Both the position numbers and the translations under genes were made by a program. From an uncultured Candidatus Saccharibacteria bacterium (GTDB lineage Bacteria > Patescibacteriota > Minisyncoccia > Phycocordibacterales > UBA5272), in assembly GCA_964577655.1 (NCBI GenBank), contig CAZNZR010000002.1, forward strand, positions 1-61,326: DNA of 61,326 nucleotides, given 5' to 3'. Positions 15,696 to 52,359 of this stretch are shown one piece after another; within the stretch, counting starts at the first letter, position 1; every line of letters starts with the position of its first letter. The notes below the pieces were generated by a model. The model was not told the DNA's origin and made no database searches. It saw only the letters and a program-made list of their open reading frames with translations.

Positions 15696-16193
15696 ATGAA
15701 AGTTATTTTTATTCAAGATGTAGCGAGAGTTGGAAGAAAGGGAGAAGTGAAAGAAGTAGCTAATGGATTTGCTACGAATGTACTAATACCTAAAAAGCAA
15801 GCAGTGATAGCTACCGGAGAAGCTATAAGAAAGATAGAAGTAGAAAAGCAAAATAAAGAAGCCAAAAAAGAATTGGATAAAAATCTTTTTTTAAAAGCCG
15901 TAAATACTTTATGGGAAGAAATATCATCAAGTAGTAATGGGCTACTTGAGATAGAGGGTCACAAGAGCGATAAGCATGGTAATCTTTTTTCTCAGATAAA
16001 AGAAGAAGATATCGTAAAAGCAATATTTGAAAAAATAAAAATTTCTTTTAATCCTAGCCAAATAGATCTCGGTAAAAGTCCAATTAAAAAGCTAGGAGAA
16101 TATGAGATAGAGCTGAAAGATCCGACTTCGCACAAGGCTTCGTCAGGACACAGTAAAGAAAATAAAAGAAAAATAAAGATATTCGTTAAATAA
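15696..16193 (+). CDS. rplI: 50S ribosomal protein L9
   Basis: 'MKVIFIQDVARVGRKGEVKEVANGFATNVLIPKK' is a canonical L9 N-domain. Confidence 0.9.
   Translation: MKVIFIQDVARVGRKGEVKEVANGFATNVLIPKKQAVIATGEAIRKIEVEKQNKEAKKELDKNLFLKAVNTLWEEISSSSNGLLEIEGHKSDKHGNLFSQIKEEDIVKAIFEKIKISFNPSQIDLGKSPIKKLGEYEIELKDPTSHKASSGHSKENKRKIKIFVK
16121..16153 (+). repeat. GC-rich mini-element copy inside rplI
   Basis: TCCGACTTCGCACAAGGCTTCGTCAGGACACAG, translated in-frame as 'PTSHKASSGHS'. Confidence 0.8.
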
Positions 16194-16258: not shown

Positions 16259-16531
16259 TTAAATTACATTGATAACTTTTTTCATTATTGTAGTGTTATC
16301 AAATTTTATTTGTCTTTTTTGAGAGAAAGATACTTTTCCATCTTTTAGAGCAAAAAGAGTGTGATCTTTACCCATGCCTACATTTTTCCCAGCGAGGAAC
16401 TTTGTTCCTCGCTGGCGAATAAGGATATTACCTGCTTTGACAACCTCATTAGATCCTTTTTTAAGACCTAGATACTTTGGTTGACTGTCTCTCAGGTTTT
16501 TCGCGGTTCCGGCCGCCTTACGATGTGCCAT
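16259..16531 (-). CDS. rpmA: 50S ribosomal protein L27
   Basis: '[24 protein letters not shown]' and '[12 protein letters not shown]'. Confidence 0.95.
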
Positions 16532-23703: not shown

Positions 23704-24585
23704 ATGTCTGATAAATACAAAGCCATCTGGCTCTCACATTCTTCATATAATGACTTTTTAAATTGTCCGAGAGGATATTATTTAAAAAATGTATACAAAG
23801 ATCCAAAAACAAAAAATAAAATTTCTCTTTTGTCTTCTGCGACCTCTCTCGGCTCCGCAGTACATCTATCTATAGAGACTCTACTCAATTATCCATCACA
23901 CGAGCGAGAAGAGAAGTTAAAAGATCTAGAAAAAGAATATGAGAGGATCTGGAATGAGAATTTTGTAGGGGAAAAAGGCGGATTCCAGAATAGTGAAGAA
24001 GAAAAAGAATATTATGACAAGGGTCTCGCAATGATAGAAAATATAAAAGAGAATCCTAACTTTTTACTTAATAAAATAATTAAAAAAGAAAGCTATTATA
24101 AAGGAGATATTTTGCCAAACTTTTTTATAGATGATGAGGAAGAAGTGTTACTTTGTGGGGTGCCTGATTGGGTAGAGTATCTAGATGATGACACATTACA
24201 TGTAGTAGACTTCAAGACTGGCAAAAATGAAGAAAAAGAAAATAGTACACAGCTCCCAATATATGTACTACTACTTGAGAATCTACAAAAAAGAAAAGTC
24301 ACAAAAGCTAGCTATTGGTATCTTCTCACAGACAAAAATATAAAACACAAGGAGATAAATAGAGAAGAGATAGAAGAAGTAAAAAATAAAATTGTCCAAG
24401 CTGGAAAAGAAATAAAAGATTTAAAAAATGAGACTCTTAAAAAAGACTGGAAAGAAATATTTGTATGTAAAAAAGGGGAGTTTGGATGTATTCATTGTCG
24501 TGACTATGAAAAGATATTGAATAATGAAGCAGAATATATTGGGAAGGATATTTATGGAAAGGATGGGTATATTTTAAGAAATTAG
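23704..24585 (+). CDS. Cas4/AddB-type PD-(D/E)XK nuclease with putative Fe-S cysteines
   Basis: N-terminal 'NCPRGYY', 'GVPDWVEY', 'HVVDFKTGK', 'QLPIYVLL' and C-terminal 'CKKGEFGCIHC'. Confidence 0.85.
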   Translation: MSDKYKAIWLSHSSYNDFLNCPRGYYLKNVYKDPKTKNKISLLSSATSLGSAVHLSIETLLNYPSHEREEKLKDLEKEYERIWNENFVGEKGGFQNSEEEKEYYDKGLAMIENIKENPNFLLNKIIKKESYYKGDILPNFFIDDEEEVLLCGVPDWVEYLDDDTLHVVDFKTGKNEEKENSTQLPIYVLLLENLQKRKVTKASYWYLLTDKNIKHKEINREEIEEVKNKIVQAGKEIKDLKNETLKKDWKEIFVCKKGEFGCIHCRDYEKILNNEAEYIGKDIYGKDGYILRN

Positions 24586-26393
24586 AATTCTATTTTTAAG
24601 AGATTTAGGGTGTCATAATCTGTATTGATTTTATGTTTAAATTTTATATTTGCTAATAATTCCTTATTTATTCTAAAATTATTTTTCTTTAATTCTTTTT
24701 TGATAGTTTCTAATTCTTTTTCATTGTGTTTTTGTTTTAATATGTTTTCAATATCTTTTTCTAAAAATTTTATTTCAGTCTTTTCTAAAGATTTTGCCTC
24801 AATTAATTCTTCAATATGTCCCGCAAGAGTAGAAATTTTTAATTCGCGAATATTTGCAATCTCTTTCAAAGATTTTCCATTTCGAATATATTCAAGAGTG
24901 ATCATCTGAGTCTTTATTTTATTTCCATATTCATCTTTTCGGTGATTTATTTTCTTTTTCTTTTCAGCTTTTTCAAACTCTTTCTTCTCTTCTTCTCTCT
25001 TTTTCTTTTCTTCTTCTAAATCGACCTCTTTTAAATCTCCATCACACGCCAATATGAATTCTTCTTGCTTTTTTCGTAGGTCTTTTGTAGCTTCTTGCGA
25101 AGAAGGAGCATAATATTTTTCTAATGCCTTCACTGCACGAGCAGACTTATCTCTGAATAATTTATCTTGAGCTACTACAGAGCTATTTACTCTTAGAGCA
25201 TCATTATGAATGCCTAGTAACTTTATATTTTCAAATTTACGCACACGAGATAGGGCCACATATCCCATCCCAGAGCCGAAAGCTTTTGCTAGATCTATCT
25301 CCGCAGCGTCCAAAGTCATACCTTGTGACTTGTGAACTGTGATGGCCCAAGCATAGCGGAGGGGAATTTGTGATAATTCTGCGAATACTTTACCGTCATC
25401 ATTTACATATTGCCATGATTCTAGTCCTACATTTATTTTTTTTCCATCAAAAGTCTTTACAATAGGCATATTAGCTCCATCAAATTCTACTACTTCTCCG
25501 AGTGTTCCGTTTTGGTATTCTCTATCTTTTGCATTTTTTACAAAGATGACTTTTGTACCTATTTTTAGATCTAGATATTCTGGAGCAAGACAATTCTGCT
25601 TTAGTATCTCAATCTGATTCTTTTTTCCTGTAGCTACCATGTGATAACTGTGTTCCTCTTTACTTTTAAGAGAGTTATATTTTTCAATATTAATACTATC
25701 AACGTCGATATTGTGAGTATAGAGTTTTAAGATGTCTTTATTTGTCTTATCTTCTAGAATACTATTTAATTTATGAAGTACTTTCTCTACCTCTCTCTCG
25801 AATCTGATATCATTAAGTATCTTAGTTAACGATTCATCTTCTTGGCGATAATTCTCCTCGAGATAGCAGACGACAGGATTGAGCTCTTGCCAGGCGGGGG
25901 AATTAAAAGCAAATTCTTTTCCTTCATTTACAATTTCTTCTTTATTAAAATTTTTAACTACAGGTGGAAGTTGAAAAAAGTCTCCACAAAAAATAATCTG
26001 TACTCCAGCAAAAGGAAGAGTACTGTTTCTAAATTTTTTAAAAAGAGTGTTTATCATCTCTAATCTTGATGCGTGTAGCATTGATATCTCATCTATGATG
26101 AGCACTTTCACATCTTGATATCTTTTAAATAATTTTTCATTCTGCTCTAGCTTGTCTAGAGTATAGCGATCCAATTTTTCATATACACCAATTCCAGTAA
26201 AGGAGTGTACTGTCTGTCCACCAATATGAGTAGCGGCTATACCAGTAGAAGCTGTGATTGATGGATTCACAGAGTGAGATTTTAGATATTCAATATATTT
26301 ATTGAGTACAAAAGTCTTACCAGTTCCGGCAGCTCCAGTTAAGAATACAGAATGTCCCATTTTCATTATATCCAGCGCTTCGTCTTGAGTCAT
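24582..26393 (-). CDS. PIF1/RecD-like SF1 helicase with C-terminal helix-turn-helix domain
   Basis: 'LTGAAGTGKT', 'VLIIDEISML', 'CGDFFQLPPV', 'ITVHKSQGMTLD' and 'YVALSRVR'. A K/E-rich linker precedes 'SLKEIANIRELKISTLAGHIEELI'. Confidence 0.85.
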   Translation of the reverse strand: MTQDEALDIMKMGHSVFLTGAAGTGKTFVLNKYIEYLKSHSVNPSITASTGIAATHIGGQTVHSFTGIGVYEKLDRYTLDKLEQNEKLFKRYQDVKVLIIDEISMLHASRLEMINTLFKKFRNSTLPFAGVQIIFCGDFFQLPPVVKNFNKEEIVNEGKEFAFNSPAWQELNPVVCYLEENYRQEDESLTKILNDIRFEREVEKVLHKLNSILEDKTNKDILKLYTHNIDVDSINIEKYNSLKSKEEHSYHMVATGKKNQIEILKQNCLAPEYLDLKIGTKVIFVKNAKDREYQNGTLGEVVEFDGANMPIVKTFDGKKINVGLESWQYVNDDGKVFAELSQIPLRYAWAITVHKSQGMTLDAAEIDLAKAFGSGMGYVALSRVRKFENIKLLGIHNDALRVNSSVVAQDKLFRDKSARAVKALEKYYAPSSQEATKDLRKKQEEFILACDGDLKEVDLEEEKKKREEEKKEFEKAEKKKKINHRKDEYGNKIKTQMITLEYIRNGKSLKEIANIRELKISTLAGHIEELIEAKSLEKTEIKFLEKDIENILKQKHNEKELETIKKELKKNNFRINKELLANIKFKHKINTDYDTLNLLKIEF

Positions 26394-27896: not shown

Positions 27897-28544
27897 ATGA
27901 TTACTAATAATAAAATAAAATACGGACTTAAAATACATACAGACTTCACTGCTGAAGAGATAATTAATCATACTCATATAATTAATATTGATAAAAGAGA
28001 GCATAGAGTAATAAGAGAAGAAAGTATAGCTACCCTTTCCTTTGGAAAGGGGCTGGGAGATAGGACTAATAATTTCCTATCTCATACTATTATCAACTTA
28101 AATGTAGAAGGAGCAAGTGTAGAATTTATTGGTAGGTACAAGGCGAATAAGAGTCTCTGCGATGTATCATGTGTTGTAAATCACAATGCTGACAATACTA
28201 AGAGTAGTATTAATATAAGAGGAATAGCAGAATTAGAAGGAAAAATAATTTCTAGATCAAATATTTTCGTCCAAGAAAATGTGAGAGGAGTAGAAGGTGA
28301 AGAAAAATGTAAATATATTTTCGTTGTTGATGGAGATGAGAGGGCAGGGCTTGTCCGCCATAGCTTTAGCGAAGGTGGAGAGATAGACGCAATACCTAAT
28401 CTAGATATTAATAGTCACGAAGTGAAAGTCTCTCACGCTGTATCAATTTCTAAAATAAAAAAAGCCGACATTTGGTATGCCGGCTTGCATGGAGCCTCTG
28501 AAAAAGAAGCAGTAAAAAGCTTTGAGGAAAATTTTTTGAATTAA
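27897..28544 (+). CDS. sufD: SufD-like protein (short, C-terminal SufBD domain only)
   Basis: 'VNHNADNTKSSINIRG' and 'IPNLDINSHEVKVSHAVSISKI'. It is only 215 aa. Confidence 0.7.
   Translation: MITNNKIKYGLKIHTDFTAEEIINHTHIINIDKREHRVIREESIATLSFGKGLGDRTNNFLSHTIINLNVEGASVEFIGRYKANKSLCDVSCVVNHNADNTKSSINIRGIAELEGKIISRSNIFVQENVRGVEGEEKCKYIFVVDGDERAGLVRHSFSEGGEIDAIPNLDINSHEVKVSHAVSISKIKKADIWYAGLHGASEKEAVKSFEENFLN
28347..28379 (-). repeat. GC-rich mini-element copy inside the sufD-like gene (opposite orientation relative to the gene)
   Basis: GGGCTTGTCCGCCATAGCTTTAGCGAAGGTGGA, translated as 'GLVRHSFSEGG'. Confidence 0.8.
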
Positions 28545-30476: not shown

Positions 30477-31577
30477 ATGAAAGAAAATTTTGTAGATTCT
30501 CTGAGAAAAAAAAGACACGGAGGAAAGCCGATAGTCGTATTAGCGCCTATGGCTGATGTGACTGATGAGGTCTTTAGAAAAATGATAGAAAGATATTCCA
30601 TGCCATCTGGCCCAGATGTTTTTTGGACTGAGTTCGTTTCTGCAGATGGACTTAGTCACAAAATTGGAAAGAAAAAGCTTTTATTTGATTTGAGATTTTC
30701 TAAAAAAGAATTACCAATTCTAGCTCAAATATTTGGCGCTAATAAAGAAAATCTAATTAAAGCCACTAAGATAGTTTATAATCTAGGTTTTTCTGGGATA
30801 GATATCAATATGGGCTGCCCTGATAAAAGTATAGAAAAGCAGGGTGCTGGCGCTGCTATGATAAGAAATCCAGATCTAGTAAGAGAAATACTAAGAGATT
30901 TAAAAAAGAAAATAAATATTTTAAATAATCCTTCTTCGCTAAAGCTTCGGCAGGATAAAGAAAAAAGATTTTTCTCTTTTTCTATCAAAACTAGAATTGG
31001 ATTTAATAAGGTAGAATATGAAAATTGGTTTCCAAATATTCTAGATTTTGAACCAGATATATTTACAGTTCACTTGCGCACAAGAAAAGAGCTTAGCCTT
31101 GTAAGTGCTCATTGGGAATTAGCAAAAGAAGTAGTTATTTTTATAAAAAAATACTGTGAGAAAAATAAATTAAAAGTCCCATTTATTATTTTAAATGGTG
31201 ATGTCAAAGATGTTGTAGATGCTAAAAATAAAATCAAAATTTCTGGCGCTGATGGAGTAATGATTGGTAGGGGAGTTTTTGGCACACCTTGGCTTTTTGA
31301 TGAAAAAGAATATAAGAAAAGATTAGAACAAAATCTTAATACAAAAAAGGGGAAAGAAAATATTTTATTTAGATTGAAAATAATGTTAGAACATACAAAA
31401 CTCTTTGAAAAAAAGCTTGTGAAAATAAAAAGTTTTAATATAATGAAGAAGCATTATAAGGCATATGTAAATGGCTTTGACGGTGCTAAAGATCTAAGAA
31501 ATGATCTAATGCTAGCAAAAGATTATAAAGAGGTAAAAAAGATTTGTAATGAGTTTATAAGATTACACTCAAAATAA
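30477..31577 (+). CDS. dus: tRNA-dihydrouridine synthase
   Basis: 'VLAPMADVTDEVFR', 'GIDINMGCP', 'IKTRIG' and 'GVMIGRG'. Confidence 0.85.
   Translation: MKENFVDSLRKKRHGGKPIVVLAPMADVTDEVFRKMIERYSMPSGPDVFWTEFVSADGLSHKIGKKKLLFDLRFSKKELPILAQIFGANKENLIKATKIVYNLGFSGIDINMGCPDKSIEKQGAGAAMIRNPDLVREILRDLKKKINILNNPSSLKLRQDKEKRFFSFSIKTRIGFNKVEYENWFPNILDFEPDIFTVHLRTRKELSLVSAHWELAKEVVIFIKKYCEKNKLKVPFIILNGDVKDVVDAKNKIKISGADGVMIGRGVFGTPWLFDEKEYKKRLEQNLNTKKGKENILFRLKIMLEHTKLFEKKLVKIKSFNIMKKHYKAYVNGFDGAKDLRNDLMLAKDYKEVKKICNEFIRLHSK
30929..30960 (+). repeat. GC-rich mini-element copy inside dus
   Basis: TCCTTCTTCGCTAAAGCTTCGGCAGGATAAAG, translated as 'PSSLKLRQDK'. Confidence 0.8.
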
Positions 31578-31635: not shown

Positions 31636-32721
31636 ATGAAAAGTAATAATAAAGGATTAGAAAAACCTCAAAATCATTTAGCACTATATAGGAAATATCG
31701 TCCTAGTAGATTTGAAGATATGCTTGGGCAAGAATCAGTATTACAGACACTACAAAATGCTATAAAGCAAAATAAAATCTATCACGCATATATATTCTCA
31801 GGAGACAGAGGCACGGGAAAGACTACAGCTGCTAGAATATTCGCAAAAGAGATAGGATGCTCTCCTGATGACATATTCGAATTAGACGCAGCAAGCAATA
31901 ATAGTGTAGAAAATATACGCTTACTAATAGACTCAACTCAAGCTTCTACTTTCGGATCTAGATATAAAGTATATATATTAGATGAAGCTCACATGCTATC
32001 AAAATCAGCTTTTAATGCACTTCTAAAGACTCTAGAAGAGCCTCCAGAGCATGTTATCTTCATATTAGCTACTACCGATAGACATAAATTACCAGCTACT
32101 ATAATTTCCAGATGTCAGGATATTAGATTTTCTTCTCCATCTATAGCTACTTTAGTTAAGCATATAGAAAATATATCTAAAGAAGAAGGCTATCATGTAG
32201 CCAAAGAAGCTGAAGAAGAAATAGCCAGAGCAGGAAAAGGATCTTTTAGAGATACTTTAGGAGTGTTAGAGAAGATTTTAAATTCAGCTAATAAAAGTGA
32301 TATATCTAAAGAAGATGTAGATAATATACTTGGCATTATAGATGAAAATAAAATTTTTAAATTATTAGAATCTGTGTGTAAAAAAGATACAGAATCTGTA
32401 CTAAGATCAATAAATGAACTCAGTCTAGAGACTGATGATATGATCGAGAAAGCTTATATAAGCTTAATAAAAATGTTCGAGCTCGCTTTGTATTTTAGAT
32501 TAGTCCGAGAAAAAGAAGCTCAGAAATTTTTATATGACAAAATAGGGGAAGATTTAGTAGAAAATCTTAATGGACTAGCAAATCTATATCCTAAAATAAT
32601 ATCGTCAACTAATTTGTATAAATTATTAGATATAGAAAAAGATATTATAGGTAGTATGAGTCTAAAAGGGTCTATTCTAAATCTAGGGCTTCTAAGAATA
32701 ATAGAAGAAGATATTACATAA
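31636..32721 (+). CDS. dnaX: DNA polymerase III subunit gamma/tau (short form)
   Basis: 'YRKYRPSRFEDMLGQ', 'GDRGTGKTT', 'YILDEAHML' and 'SRCQ'. Confidence 0.9.
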   Translation: MKSNNKGLEKPQNHLALYRKYRPSRFEDMLGQESVLQTLQNAIKQNKIYHAYIFSGDRGTGKTTAARIFAKEIGCSPDDIFELDAASNNSVENIRLLIDSTQASTFGSRYKVYILDEAHMLSKSAFNALLKTLEEPPEHVIFILATTDRHKLPATIISRCQDIRFSSPSIATLVKHIENISKEEGYHVAKEAEEEIARAGKGSFRDTLGVLEKILNSANKSDISKEDVDNILGIIDENKIFKLLESVCKKDTESVLRSINELSLETDDMIEKAYISLIKMFELALYFRLVREKEAQKFLYDKIGEDLVENLNGLANLYPKIISSTNLYKLLDIEKDIIGSMSLKGSILNLGLLRIIEEDIT

Positions 32722-32873
32722 TAAATTAATGCTGTATTAAGTATCTAAAGATATTTAAGATAAAGCTTTATTTGTATATATAGAGTCGTAAAAGATATAT
32801 TGTGCGACACTATATATTTAAAACCCTTTCCTTATAAAGGCCTCAAGTAGCTTTATAAGCTTACGCTTAATAT

Positions 32874-32918
32874 AAAAACAAAATACACCTAGAACGATTC
32901 TAAGTGTATTTTGTTTTT
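32874..32918. terminator. Long bidirectional hairpin terminator (dnaX / gltX unit)
   Basis: AAAAACAAAATACAC...GTGTATTTTGTTTTT, with arms of about 15 bp. Confidence 0.65.
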
Positions 32919-33045
32919 ATATAGTCACCCAAGACTATTATTAAGGAGAGGCAGAAATGTGGGATTTTTCTAACTCCCCTATTATTAATTATAGCAATTA
33001 TAAATTCCAATATACAATATTTACAAAAAAAATTTTTATAGTATT

Positions 33046-33279
33046 TTATTTTTTCTTTACTTCAACAATATTTAGTCCTGGAATCTTATTTAACAACTTC
33101 CATAAAGGATCAAAAATCCTCTCAAACAATTTATCTAATCTGATAGTCTTAAATGGAGCAAAAAAATCAAAAGATGATTTTATATTAGAGAAAAACATAT
33201 CTCCAACATATGAAAATCCTAGAAAAATAATAATCGTGATAATTATAATAAGTGTAGATGGATATAGTTCTAAAATCAT
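33046..33279 (-). CDS. Hypothetical small membrane protein (uncertain; mutually exclusive with + ORF 32957-33307)
   Basis: 77-aa ORF with an N-terminal TM helix. It lies between gltX and the terminator at 32874-32918 on the same strand. Confidence 0.3.
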   Translation of the reverse strand: MILELYPSTLIIIITIIIFLGFSYVGDMFFSNIKSSFDFFAPFKTIRLDKLFERIFDPLWKLLNKIPGLNIVEVKKK

Positions 33280-33402
33280 ACTAATAAAAATTATTTATAA
33301 TTTATAATATTTGGCTAATTTATAGAAAGTAAAAATTATAGTTATACAAAAAATAATAAATATTAAAACTAATAGATCTGAAAGGCTTATTTCTATCATA
33401 TA

Positions 33403-46537: not shown

Positions 46538-47500
46538 CTAAATACTCTTTTCTTTTTCTATAAATTCATCTATTTCTCCTTTCTCTAAAATTTTATCAAT
46601 ATCAGTAGTTTCTACTCCAGTCCTTAGGTCTTTTACAAGTTTATATGGATGCAAAACATAATTCCTAATCTGATTGCCCCACTCTATTTCTGTAGTTTTA
46701 GAAATTTTCATCCCCTCTTTTTCTTTTAACTTATTTTCTTCTTCTATTTTAAATAATTTTGCATAGAGCATATTTATAGCCTTTTCCTTATTTTGCTCTT
46801 GAGATCTTTCAGATGATACATGTACTGCAATATTTGTTGGCCTATGAATTACTCTCACCGCAGTCTCTCTTTTATTTACATTTTGTCCGCCTGGCCCACT
46901 AGATTTTGAAGTTTCTATTTCTATATCATCAGGATTAATATTATTTTTAAATTTATCAAATTCTAATTTTGGAAGTATTGGCAGTACTTCTACCATCGCA
47001 AAGCTCGTATGTCTCTTACCGTTACTATTAAATGGAGAAATTCTGACGAGCCTATGCACTCCTGATTCATTTTTTATTTTCCCATATACATTTTTACCTA
47101 TTATTTCTAGACTTATATTTCTATATCCACCATGATCATTTTTATTTTCATGTAAAATATTTATGTTAGTAATTTTGGTTTCTTGCCAAGCTGAAGCTTT
47201 ATGCGAAAGCTGGTCGAAGTATTTTAAGTACATATTGAGTAGCATTCTCGCCCAATCTTCACTATCGTCTCCACCTGCTCCTGCCAATATATTTATTATT
47301 GCTCCACCAGCGAGAAGAGCGCTTCCTCCTTCTAATTCCGTCTTGAGATCTTTTATCTTCTGAATTACTTCTTGCGCCTTCGCTTTATCATTCCAAAAAT
47401 TCACATCGTTCATCTGCGCTTCTAATTCTTGTATTTGTTTCTGTGTCTCGCTGGAGCCTTGCGCGGAAGCGGATTGAATATTTTGTTTATCGGGATTCAT
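46538..47500 (-). CDS. prfB: Peptide chain release factor 2 (single ORF, no frameshift)
   Basis: 'RISPFNSNGKRHTSF' (SPF) and 'GPGGQNVNKRETAVR' (GGQ). Start set at the ATG 'MNPDKQ'; the track start is TTG at 47521. Confidence 0.9.
   Translation of the reverse strand: MNPDKQNIQSASAQGSSETQKQIQELEAQMNDVNFWNDKAKAQEVIQKIKDLKTELEGGSALLAGGAIINILAGAGGDDSEDWARMLLNMYLKYFDQLSHKASAWQETKITNINILHENKNDHGGYRNISLEIIGKNVYGKIKNESGVHRLVRISPFNSNGKRHTSFAMVEVLPILPKLEFDKFKNNINPDDIEIETSKSSGPGGQNVNKRETAVRVIHRPTNIAVHVSSERSQEQNKEKAINMLYAKLFKIEEENKLKEKEGMKISKTTEIEWGNQIRNYVLHPYKLVKDLRTGVETTDIDKILEKGEIDEFIEKEKSI
47441..47473 (-). repeat. GC-rich mini-element copy inside prfB
   Basis: CTGTGTCTCGCTGGAGCCTTGCGCGGAAGCGGA, translated on the minus strand as 'SASAQGSSETQ'. 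Confidence 0.8.
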
Positions 47501-47542
47501 AATTATTAAAATTATACTCAAAAATCAATATGTTTTTAAGAC

Positions 47543-51591: not shown

Positions 51592-52359
51592 TTATATATT
51601 AAGTATTTTTTCTCTCTTCCAATTCTCTATATCTTTATGATTCCCAGACAACAAGACTTTTGGTGCAGAATATTTTTTTAATTTACCAGTCTTTTTATCA
51701 CCAATTTTCCTCTCATATATTTCCGGGCGTGCATACATTTCACTACTTGCAACCCTATTTTCTTCAATACTTTCATTGTCATGCAAAACTCCAGAAATTT
51801 GTCTTGATATGCTGTCTATCATAATATTTGCCGCTAGCTCTCCACCAGTCAAAATAAAATTCCCCACTGATATATTTTCTATTTTAAAATCAAATTTAAC
51901 TCCTTTTTCTTTTAGAGATTTTTTATTATTATTTAAAATATCTTTTAATACTAGATTGACTCTAGCATCTACTCCCTCATATCTACCGCAGATAAATATA
52001 ATATGCGTATATTGTTTTGCGTATTCTTTTGCGATATTATTAGTAAAAATTTTTGCTGATGGTACAAAATTTACTACTAATAAATTTATTTTTTTATTTC
52101 TTTCTTGTCGCGCCGAAGCCTTGGCGAAGGAGGATAATATCTTTTCAAAAGTATTTATTATAGGATCAATCCAGAGTACCATACCAGGTCCACCACCAAA
52201 TGGCTTTCCGTCTGTACGTCCGTGCTTGTCTTTTGTATAATCACGAAGCTGATATGACTTTACAGAGATTAATTTATTGTTTTGAGCACGACCTAGAATA
52301 GACTCTTTTGTATAAGAATCTATCATTTCTGGAAAAAGTGTGATCGCAAAATATTTCAT
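51592..52359 (-). CDS. trmD: tRNA (guanine37-N1)-methyltransferase TrmD
   Basis: 'ITLFPEM', 'GGGPGMVL', 'ICGRYEGVDARV', 'GNFILTGGELAA' and 'LLSGNHKDIENWKRE'. Confidence 0.95.
   Translation of the reverse strand: MKYFAITLFPEMIDSYTKESILGRAQNNKLISVKSYQLRDYTKDKHGRTDGKPFGGGPGMVLWIDPIINTFEKILSSFAKASARQERNKKINLLVVNFVPSAKIFTNNIAKEYAKQYTHIIFICGRYEGVDARVNLVLKDILNNNKKSLKEKGVKFDFKIENISVGNFILTGGELAANIMIDSISRQISGVLHDNESIEENRVASSEMYARPEIYERKIGDKKTGKLKKYSAPKVLLSGNHKDIENWKREKILNI
52104..52134 (-). repeat. GC-rich mini-element copy inside trmD (reference copy)
   Basis: CTTGTCGCGCCGAAGCCTTGGCGAAGGAGGA, translated on the minus strand as 'SSFAKASARQ'. Confidence 0.8.

Follow-up and report, generated by a model that had tools for sequence, protein, structure and literature searches.

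The stretch of DNA analysed here (the window) comprises 61,326 nt of the Candidatus Saccharibacteria contig CAZNZR010000002.1 (assembly GCA_964577655.1), has a GC content of 29.9%, and carries, inside conserved genes, copies of a short GC-rich sequence, hereafter the element. In the TrmD gene (51592–52359, minus strand), a 31-nt copy with a degraded stem is located at 52104–52134 on the minus strand and contributes the peptide SSFAKASARQ. The Dus gene (30477–31577, plus strand) holds a copy at 30929–30960 on the plus strand (NPSSLKLRQDK), and the gene for ribosomal protein L9 (15696–16193, plus strand) holds a 33-nt copy at 16121–16153 on the plus strand (PTSHKASSGHS), a member of a subfamily whose loop has an extra A and whose 3′ arm is bulged. 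The RF2 gene (46538–47521, minus strand), which reads as one open frame and has a short N-terminal part, contains two inserts, both on the minus strand: copy 1 near the N-terminus (47441–47473, 33 nt, SASAQGSSETQ) and copy 2 (47180–47214, QLSHKASAWQE). These five copies are sense to their hosts; the SufD-like copy (28347–28379, minus strand, GLVRHSFSEGG) is the only one of the six that is antisense, its host being a SufBD-core gene at 27897–28544 on the plus strand. An earlier note on this DNA had listed all of these except RF2 copy 2 as mini-elements inserted in frame. The five sequences were all present at the coordinates and on the strands that it gave, and its peptides were exact (for Dus as PSSLKLRQDK). 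Its placement of the copies within conserved genes and free of stops was confirmed as well, the hosts being named by Pfam as TrmD, L9, RF2, Dus, and a short SufBD-core protein, and their open reading frames (ORFs) being open.

Similarity among the copies was scored with an nhmmer profile of the five listed copies in leave-one-out mode, using 30 dinucleotide shuffles of the window as the null. The left-out copies reached 20.3 (Dus), 18.5 (TrmD), 14.7 (L9), 11.5 (SufD), and 6.3 bits (RF2 copy 1), and the top score over the 30 shuffles was 7.7 bits. The composition-matched comparison that the earlier note had proposed as a check was thus in its favour for four copies (11.5–20.3 vs. at most 7.7 bits), and the TrmD, Dus, L9, and SufD copies are significant from sequence alone. 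RF2 copy 2 surfaced at 12.4–14.0 bits in nhmmer models that had never contained it. A covariance model was trained solely on 131 copies from other organisms and then scored on the window; these outside copies had been gathered with a pattern derived from the TrmD, Dus, and SufD copies of the window, the flanking stem arm and the tail lying outside that pattern. The model recovered the SufD copy at 44.8 bits (E = 4e-10), the TrmD copy at 35.0 bits (E = 2e-7), and the Dus copy at 27.1 bits (E = 3e-5). The L9 copy was marginal under this model (11.3 bits) and fits the extra-A subfamily, which was confirmed separately in metagenomes. RF2 copy 1 has TCCG...GCNCAAGGCT...GACACAG in common with the L9 copy, and the K-A-S reading frame is the same in RF2 copy 2 and the L9 copy. 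RF2 copy 1 was missed by the covariance model and, when left out of the profile, stayed below the shuffle maximum; the case for it is that of a GC-rich 33-nt insertion missing from the closest relative, and nothing else. The grouping of the five listed copies into one family therefore stands for TrmD, Dus, L9, and SufD and does not extend to RF2 copy 1 on the basis of its score.

By orthologue comparison, every copy in the window is a lineage-specific insertion rather than ancestral sequence (in the following, P-numbers denote homologous proteins of relatives and L-numbers denote loci outside the window). In the alignments of TrmD, Dus, L9, and RF2, the 10–11 extra residues are confined to the window and its nearest relatives. 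The presence/absence check on orthologues, likewise suggested by the earlier note, favoured insertion, with gaps in all but the closest relatives for Dus, L9, and both RF2 sites. Among 120 TrmD homologues, SSFAKASARQ is found in the window, P0002, P0003, and P0006 only. P0004 and P0005 (85–86% identity) are without the insert and have an ordinary lysine-rich loop, KEINKDKKVLNKK, as in more distant relatives, i.e., the insert is polymorphic (present or absent) among relatives at 82–86% identity. At the DNA level, the empty TrmD allele reads ...ATTTTG/AAAGAAATAAATAAAGATAAAAAAGTATTAAAT... (slash at the insertion point), and the window reads ...ATATTA(31 nt)AAAGAAATAAAAAAATAAAT...; 31 nt were gained and about 19 nt were lost in the A-rich tract just downstream, giving a net change of +12 nt, so that the loss beside the insert restored the frame. 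Only the window and P0121 (98% identity) have the Dus insert NPSSLKLRQDK; 119 other homologues show an 11-residue gap, and the DNA junction is clean, without target duplication. For L9, the clean 11-residue insert PTSHKASSGHS is restricted to the window, P0242 (90% identity), and P0243 (72%); about 70 other homologues are uniformly 11 residues shorter at this site, which lies in the last beta-hairpin. The corresponding DNA reads GA/33 nt/TAAAG versus GA/TAAGG in the empty allele, again without a target-site duplication. Filled and empty sites of TrmD, L9, and Dus were compared in this way, and at none of the three was a target-site duplication seen. In RF2, the 11 residues of site 2 (LSHKASAWQET) are common to the window and P0328 (88% identity) only, and the 11 residues of site 1 (SASAQGSSETQ) are missing from P0328 and all other homologues; since P0328 has site 2 and lacks site 1, site 1 is the younger event. 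For the SufD-like protein, the site in the syntenic orthologue of L185 is shorter by six residues.

The consensus of the element is 30 nt long and reads TCCGCC-TTC-GCC-AA-GGC-TWC-GGCGGA-CAAG (also given as TCCGCCTTCGCCAAGGCTWCGGCGGACAAG), and its conservation extends beyond the pattern used for the search. Its parts are a 6-bp stem, a 3 × 3 internal loop, a GC-clamped AA apex, and an unpaired 3′ ACAAG tail, which, read on the reverse strand, places a CTTG tag at the hairpin's 5′ foot. In a second subfamily, of 32–33 nt, the loop is longer by one A and the 3′ arm has a bulge. The fold of the consensus (−12.9 kcal/mol) leaves ACAAG unpaired at the 3′ end. The middle stem pair varies by compensatory substitution (TCC[N]CC vs. 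GG[N′]GGA), and all four Watson–Crick pairs occur at this position (G-C 45, T-A 21, C-G 8, A-T 7; chi-square p = 8e-24). Over the 131 distinct copies, 93% of the cells were paired compared to 85.4% after shuffling, and 94 double changes were counted compared to 33, values equalled by none of 500 shuffles. A pseudoknot between the loop (GGCU) and the tail (AGCC) was considered and rejected, as its pairing (69.5%) was that of the shuffles (69.3%), without covariation support. The copies in the window differ from each other by many substitutions and 1-nt indels and have mostly lost the stem; the SufD copy alone still folds into the family structure and is the best-preserved hairpin, its mRNA-sense strand folding at −10.4 kcal/mol. 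The short CGC...GCG stem, which was all the secondary structure seen by the earlier note, is thereby superseded by a hairpin with a covarying 6-bp stem in the intact element.

Copies outside the window were collected by a pattern scan of one genome per species with a degenerate pattern built from three window copies, which returned at least 120 loci. The matches listed include Patescibacteria (several classes), Verrucomicrobiota (many of them Opitutaceae), Acidobacteriota, Planctomycetota, Bacteroidota, Alphaproteobacteria including cultured Bradyrhizobium strains, Desulfobacterota, Nitrospirota, Geomonas, Cerasicoccus, Nitrospira, Elusimicrobia, Omnitrophota, Bdellovibrionota, Dependentiae, and others. 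Among these listed matches, the core, arms, and tail are nearly unchanged in more than 15 phyla. True copies were also present at 55 loci of IMG/VR viral contigs, some of which bear capsid and tail genes. The extra-A subfamily, to which the L9 copy and RF2 copy 2 belong, gave many matches at the least in the metagenome scan. In non-Patescibacteria genomes, the copies are depleted from long ORFs (40% vs. 76% of random positions), and some are located directly upstream of tRNA genes. No gene family was enriched among 146 ORFs neighbouring the copies. The flanks are mutually reverse-complementary in about 10–12% of copies versus 1–3% of controls, i.e., in a subset only (L043, L063, L021, L227, and others). 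In L043 the element lies exactly at the centre of a perfect palindrome (AGACGCGATT/element/AATCGCGTCT). Such central positions mean either that hairpin loops are a preferred target or that the long hairpin is part of the unit.

Two further observations concern the surroundings of outside copies. Intergenic copies often lie within tandem repeats of 6–9 nt, with one unit on both sides (CAATATT, CCCTCAG, GCAGTAA), examples being L145, L162, L071, L103, L111, L118, L052, L010, and L030 (non-Patescibacteria and viral). As a general feature of the element, such flanks were rejected, as they were found in 14% of copies of other phyla versus 4.7% of control positions. Tandem amplification of each half of the element is seen around positions 56–78 of L086 (Candidatus Tantalella remota), where the left side has about three units of CCGCCTTTGCCAAGGCTT and the right side about four of CGGCGGACAAGT.

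Within coding sequence, no copy in the window interrupts the ORF of its host, and at every site the net change in length is divisible by three. Reading of the consensus in all frames gave five of six frames free of stops, and six of six in the TTCG variant. On low-GC contigs, three scans yielded 23 copies well inside long ORFs, 18 of them sense and 5 antisense (p = 0.011), and nearly all sense copies are read in one frame, as [N/D]PPSHKAS[E/A]GQ or SSFAKASxDK. This dominant frame is also used by the TrmD and L9 copies and RF2 copy 2 of the window. Two statements of the earlier note are narrowed by these counts: copies do occur in both orientations, as the antisense SufD copy demonstrates, whereas the other five of the window are sense and the bias is strongly towards sense; and 1-nt indels among copies were indeed found, whereas one frame is strongly favoured on low-GC contigs over the different frames that the note had described. 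The hosts elsewhere are NusA, IF-2, arginyl-tRNA synthetase, RecF, GAPDH, GatB, RNase R, a Mur ligase, a UvrD-type helicase-nuclease, a 5′-3′ exonuclease, a SpoU methylase, and glycosyltransferases. The TrmD copies of the window and P0003 differ at three or four positions, all of them synonymous. The open ORFs, the compensating loss in TrmD, the synonymous TrmD differences, and the single dominant frame indicate that the inserts are translated and then evolve as coding sequence.

TrmD has received the element more than once. P0060 carries a copy in the same loop as the window but at another nucleotide position, namely TCCTTCTTCGCTAAAGCTACGAAGGACAGGGGCTACGACGGGACAAGG, and the first 18 nt of this copy are identical to the Dus copy of the window. 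P0021 has a decayed copy, TCTGCTGTCACTAAAGCTTCAGTAAGACAAG, in the same loop at a different position, and P0049 has a canonical copy (36.4 bits; peptide KSSFAKATEGQEN) in a second TrmD loop. The repeated hits indicate recurrent insertion filtered by the tolerance of the protein. When aligned to solved TrmD structures, the site in the window falls on a short connection leading from the helix after the GGG.GMVL motif to the next strand. In an AlphaFold model of TrmD, the insert extends that helix, with the mean predicted local distance difference test score (pLDDT) falling to 63 over residues 81–90.

Other extra segments were observed in the same proteins. Unrelated GC-rich palindromic inserts are present in the same TrmD loop of P0009 (...CCCTTTCCCAAAGGGTAAGGGG..., gene at L007:6874-7698) and P0049 (...GCTTCCCTTGGGGAAGC..., gene at L006:71-937), so that more than one family of GC-rich mini-inserts colonises these AT-rich genes. 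Dus homologues have extra segments, too, in P0229 (VRSASSGQA) and in P0163 and P0192.

The six window sites are, in our judgement, probably old and partly decayed copies of a short, non-autonomous, dispersed element, and the insertion-element interpretation of the earlier note is thereby supported. The element is copied to new sites without target-site duplication, as seen at the junctions above. A copy arriving in an A-rich surface loop would add 10–11 hydrophilic residues, and a length that is a multiple of three, together with five or six of six frames being free of stops, would allow such an insert to be tolerated and translated. For a copy whose length is not divisible by three, TrmD being the case in point, an indel in a neighbouring A-tract restores the frame, as found at the DNA level. 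Thereafter, ordinary coding evolution would set in, with drift towards AT and loss of the hairpin. The hairpin-plus-tag architecture, the absent duplication, and the strand bias suggest mobilisation as single-stranded DNA: the hairpin may form in single-stranded DNA, likely at the replication fork or on the non-template strand of transcribed genes, where a trans-acting HUH-type enzyme could cut and paste or copy it. Mobilisation by an HUH-type enzyme has been proposed for the repetitive extragenic palindromes (REPs) with RAYT and for IS200/IS605. From its layout on the reverse strand (CTTG followed by the hairpin), we read the element as a REP-like, non-autonomous hairpin element.

A wider reading, which we advance tentatively and at slightly less than even confidence, is that this is an undescribed pan-bacterial mobile hairpin element of about 30 nt, with a core common to Bradyrhizobium and Opitutaceae as well as Saccharibacteria, Parcubacteria, and phage contigs, and that in the gene-dense, AT-rich Patescibacteria it is a pervasive strand- and frame-specific donor of peptide inserts (NPPSHKASEGQ or SSFAKASxDK) to essential proteins. 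If so, the factor that mobilises or binds it would be universal, or horizontally shared and so far unrecognised. Several points weigh against a mobile element. No Y1-transposase homologue was detected in about 5,300 ORFs over about 1.3 Mb around copies, a weak test, and no transposase family stood out among the 146 ORFs flanking copies, which is likewise a weak test. The window lacks any two copies that are nearly identical, so that recent activity in this genome is unsupported, and the density of copies refers to the 61-kb window. The conservation of the core across phyla equally fits functional constraint, e.g., on a protein- or RNA-binding intergenic hairpin; the sense and frame bias may reflect selection on the encoded peptide and not the mechanism of insertion; and REP families are normally species-specific (PMC6006769).

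The first of these objections to be taken up is functional constraint, i.e., the hairpin as a selected cis-element such as a signal for RNA stability or processing or a protein-binding site, with the genic copies as by-products or themselves functional. A core conserved across phyla with a stem kept by compensatory change is the usual sign of a functional structured nucleic acid, and the depletion from long ORFs in non-Patescibacteria genomes (40% vs. 76%), the copies immediately upstream of tRNA genes, and the roughly 10% of copies at the apex of longer hairpins are all in line with it. Against this stand the genic copies of the window, which are without the stem and have diverged by many substitutions and 1-nt indels, and the inserts, which vary in presence between close relatives and turn up repeatedly at different sites; nor was the element accompanied by an associated gene family, a match in Rfam, or covariation support for the pseudoknot. 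A cis-element is a serious alternative for the intergenic copies of other phyla and fails for the decayed, polymorphic genic ones, and as an account of the whole family we regard it as unlikely. Acquisition without any transposase is another option that we find rather improbable: a hairpin oligonucleotide or exogenous DNA would be captured during fork template switching or break repair in naturally competent cells. The lack of a transposase near copies (from the weak tests above) and of target duplications would follow, the TrmD and SufD events pair insertion with loss of adjacent bases, phage contigs carry copies and could deliver DNA, and dprA lies in the TrmD neighbourhood of the window (with a syntenic gene in L002). 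Precise and repeatable ends (TCC...CAAG) at independent sites together with a strand bias are, however, more typical of ends defined by an enzyme.

The remaining two explanations are given very little weight. The earlier note had considered an uptake-signal-like motif, pointing to dprA in the window. A DNA uptake signal would accumulate by biased uptake and recombination, and the proximity of the competence gene dprA and the dispersal of the motif, also within genes as uptake sequences are, would suit it. This suggestion is unsupported, since the window holds only six or seven mutually diverged copies in 61 kb, which originated by insertion of 30–33 nt and not by point mutation, are biased in orientation, and have the same sequence in many unrelated phyla; known uptake signals are lineage-specific, and we consider this origin highly improbable. 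Just as hard to sustain is the idea that the inserts remain untranslated, being skipped by the ribosome or removed from the mRNA in the manner of byp elements in a yeast mitochondrion. The inserts are short and GC-rich within AT-rich genes, and lengths of 31 and 32 nt are not multiples of three, which would suit such a bypass, but the host ORFs are open and in frame, each site has a net change divisible by three, a deletion compensates for the insert in TrmD, a single frame is strongly dominant across many host proteins, and related TrmD copies differ by synonymous substitutions.

Besides the six copies, a candidate decayed copy is located at 25074–25109 on the minus strand, within the gene of a PIF1-like helicase (24582–26393, minus strand; named by Pfam), with the peptide APSSQEATKDLR. 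It was not significant, with 11.6 bits (E = 0.6) under the covariance model and 6–7 bits with nhmmer. Weaker copies that the earlier note had reported in yqeY and in intergenic DNA were not recovered at significance. The intergenic stretch 1715–1750 (TCCTTGCCGCGTAAGGCTTTGGCACC) resembles a badly decayed copy and is likewise not significant, as its nhmmer score of 7.6–9.5 bits (E 0.1–0.4) barely exceeds the best shuffle. The earlier claim that one sequence accounts for the few GC-rich islands was too sweeping: about 50 segments of 30 nt have a GC content of at least 60%, several of them overlap tRNA genes, and the two islands tested, in DnaB and CysRS, are conserved protein motifs and not copies of the element. 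A perfect GC-rich inverted repeat (TCCCAGCGAGGAAC...GTTCCTCGCTGG) at 16387–16418, between L9 and an oppositely oriented L27-like ORF, has the appearance of a bidirectional terminator and no relation to the element. Regarding strand organisation, the cumulative GC skew has its maximum near 33 kb (about 32700–33400), and genes to the left of about 33 kb are nearly all on the plus strand and those to the right nearly all on the minus strand, converging there; the region at about 32700–33400 looks like a replication terminus. Five of the six copies are on the strand sense to the co-oriented genes, so that strand biases of replication and of transcription are inseparable within the window.

Palindromic mini-elements inserted in frame in conserved genes are a kind already known. 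The present family appears to be new in its tag, in its reach across phyla and viral contigs, and in its systematic in-frame colonisation of Patescibacteria housekeeping genes. A search of 15 loci against Rfam returned only tRNAs, and a consensus copy scored 12.7 bits at best compared to a threshold of 50 bits. The GenBank phage and PLSDB plasmid collections gave chance-level partial matches only and no annotated name for the element. In a literature search, the DNA core, its reverse complement, the RNA form, and the typical peptides were in none of the searchable papers (one paper matching a six-letter string was unrelated), and a search for Patescibacteria with palindromic or intragenic repeats gave nothing relevant. 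The earlier note had been aware of no description for Patescibacteria-like genomes; none was found here either, and the family is not peculiar to Patescibacteria, as it spans many phyla and viral contigs. With it, Patescibacteria would join the small number of lineages whose essential proteins are remodelled internally by short palindromic elements. A recognisable, recurrent inserted peptide inflates and confuses the alignments and family models of proteins from these genomes. Polymorphic insertions between close relatives offer natural markers of strain history and a direct test of the tolerance of loops to insertion in a minimal proteome. Near-identity over more than 15 phyla among the matches listed, together with phage contigs, contradicts the picture of REPs as species-specific and raises the question of what recognises the hairpin.

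With respect to known systems, similarities to the sarcin-ricin loop, the signal recognition particle RNA, the 3′ end of 16S rRNA, the preQ1 riboswitch, the twister ribozyme, integron attC sites, and the ends of IS91/Helitron extend over only a few bases, and these were set aside for that reason. The REP/REPIN-RAYT systems are much closer in architecture. Like REPs, the element is a GC-rich imperfect palindrome in the range of 20–40 nt that forms a stem-loop, with a tag at the foot, a stem with complementary variants, unpaired trinucleotides, and a GC-clamped short loop. GTAG-3 REPs are described as having a terminal tag, a stem of 6–9 bp with complementary variant positions, unpaired di- or trinucleotides, and a short GC-flanked loop (Di Nocera et al. 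2013, PMC3733652). As with the element, REP copies may be single, clustered, or intragenic and encode short peptides; intragenic REPs occur in several species, with most in Opitutus terrae and Rickettsia conorii, where RPE-4 and RPE-6 are classed as CGTC REPs (PMC3733652). Neither the sequence of the element nor its peptides occur in that paper or the supplements to it (PMC3733652). REPs are defined by a tetranucleotide guide 5′ to the foot of the hairpin and are not conserved between species (Quentin et al. 2018, PMC6006769). The tag of the element, in contrast, is CTTG (ACAAG on the other strand) and not GT[AG]G or CGTC, GTAG being found solely inside the loop of the TAC variant, and its core is common to many phyla and not specific to a species or genus. 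Furthermore, no RAYT was found near copies in a weak search over about 1.3 Mb. REPs have a high copy number and are predominantly extragenic; in the window, with six or seven copies in 61 kb, all but possibly one are inside genes, and in other phyla the copies are depleted from ORFs. Two defining features, the tag and the species specificity, exclude the element from the described REP families.

Transposable elements of the miniature inverted-repeat type (MITEs), which make target-site duplications, are comparable in being short, non-autonomous, dispersed, and sometimes intragenic. They measure 70–300 bp and have terminal inverted repeats (PMC3733652). In contrast, the element consists of one 30-nt hairpin, and the TrmD, L9, and Dus sites were free of duplication. 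The earlier note had likened the behaviour of the inserts to that of Rickettsia palindromic elements (RPEs) and of the GC clusters of yeast mitochondria, which is apt as regards behaviour. The GC clusters are GC-rich palindromes of about 30–50 nt, from which the byp elements skipped in translation are derived. In common with the element, they are mobile GC-rich palindromes in a very AT-rich genome and sometimes lie within coding sequence; they differ in being organellar and unrelated in sequence, and byp elements are skipped whereas read-through translation is favoured here. RPE-1, reportedly described by Ogata and colleagues in 2000, is about 100–150 bp long and confined to Rickettsia. While the element is shorter (30–33 nt), unrelated in sequence, and spread over many phyla, it shares with the RPEs a palindromic structure, in-frame location in conserved genes of a reduced AT-rich genome, apparent translation, probable placement in surface loops, and variability among relatives.

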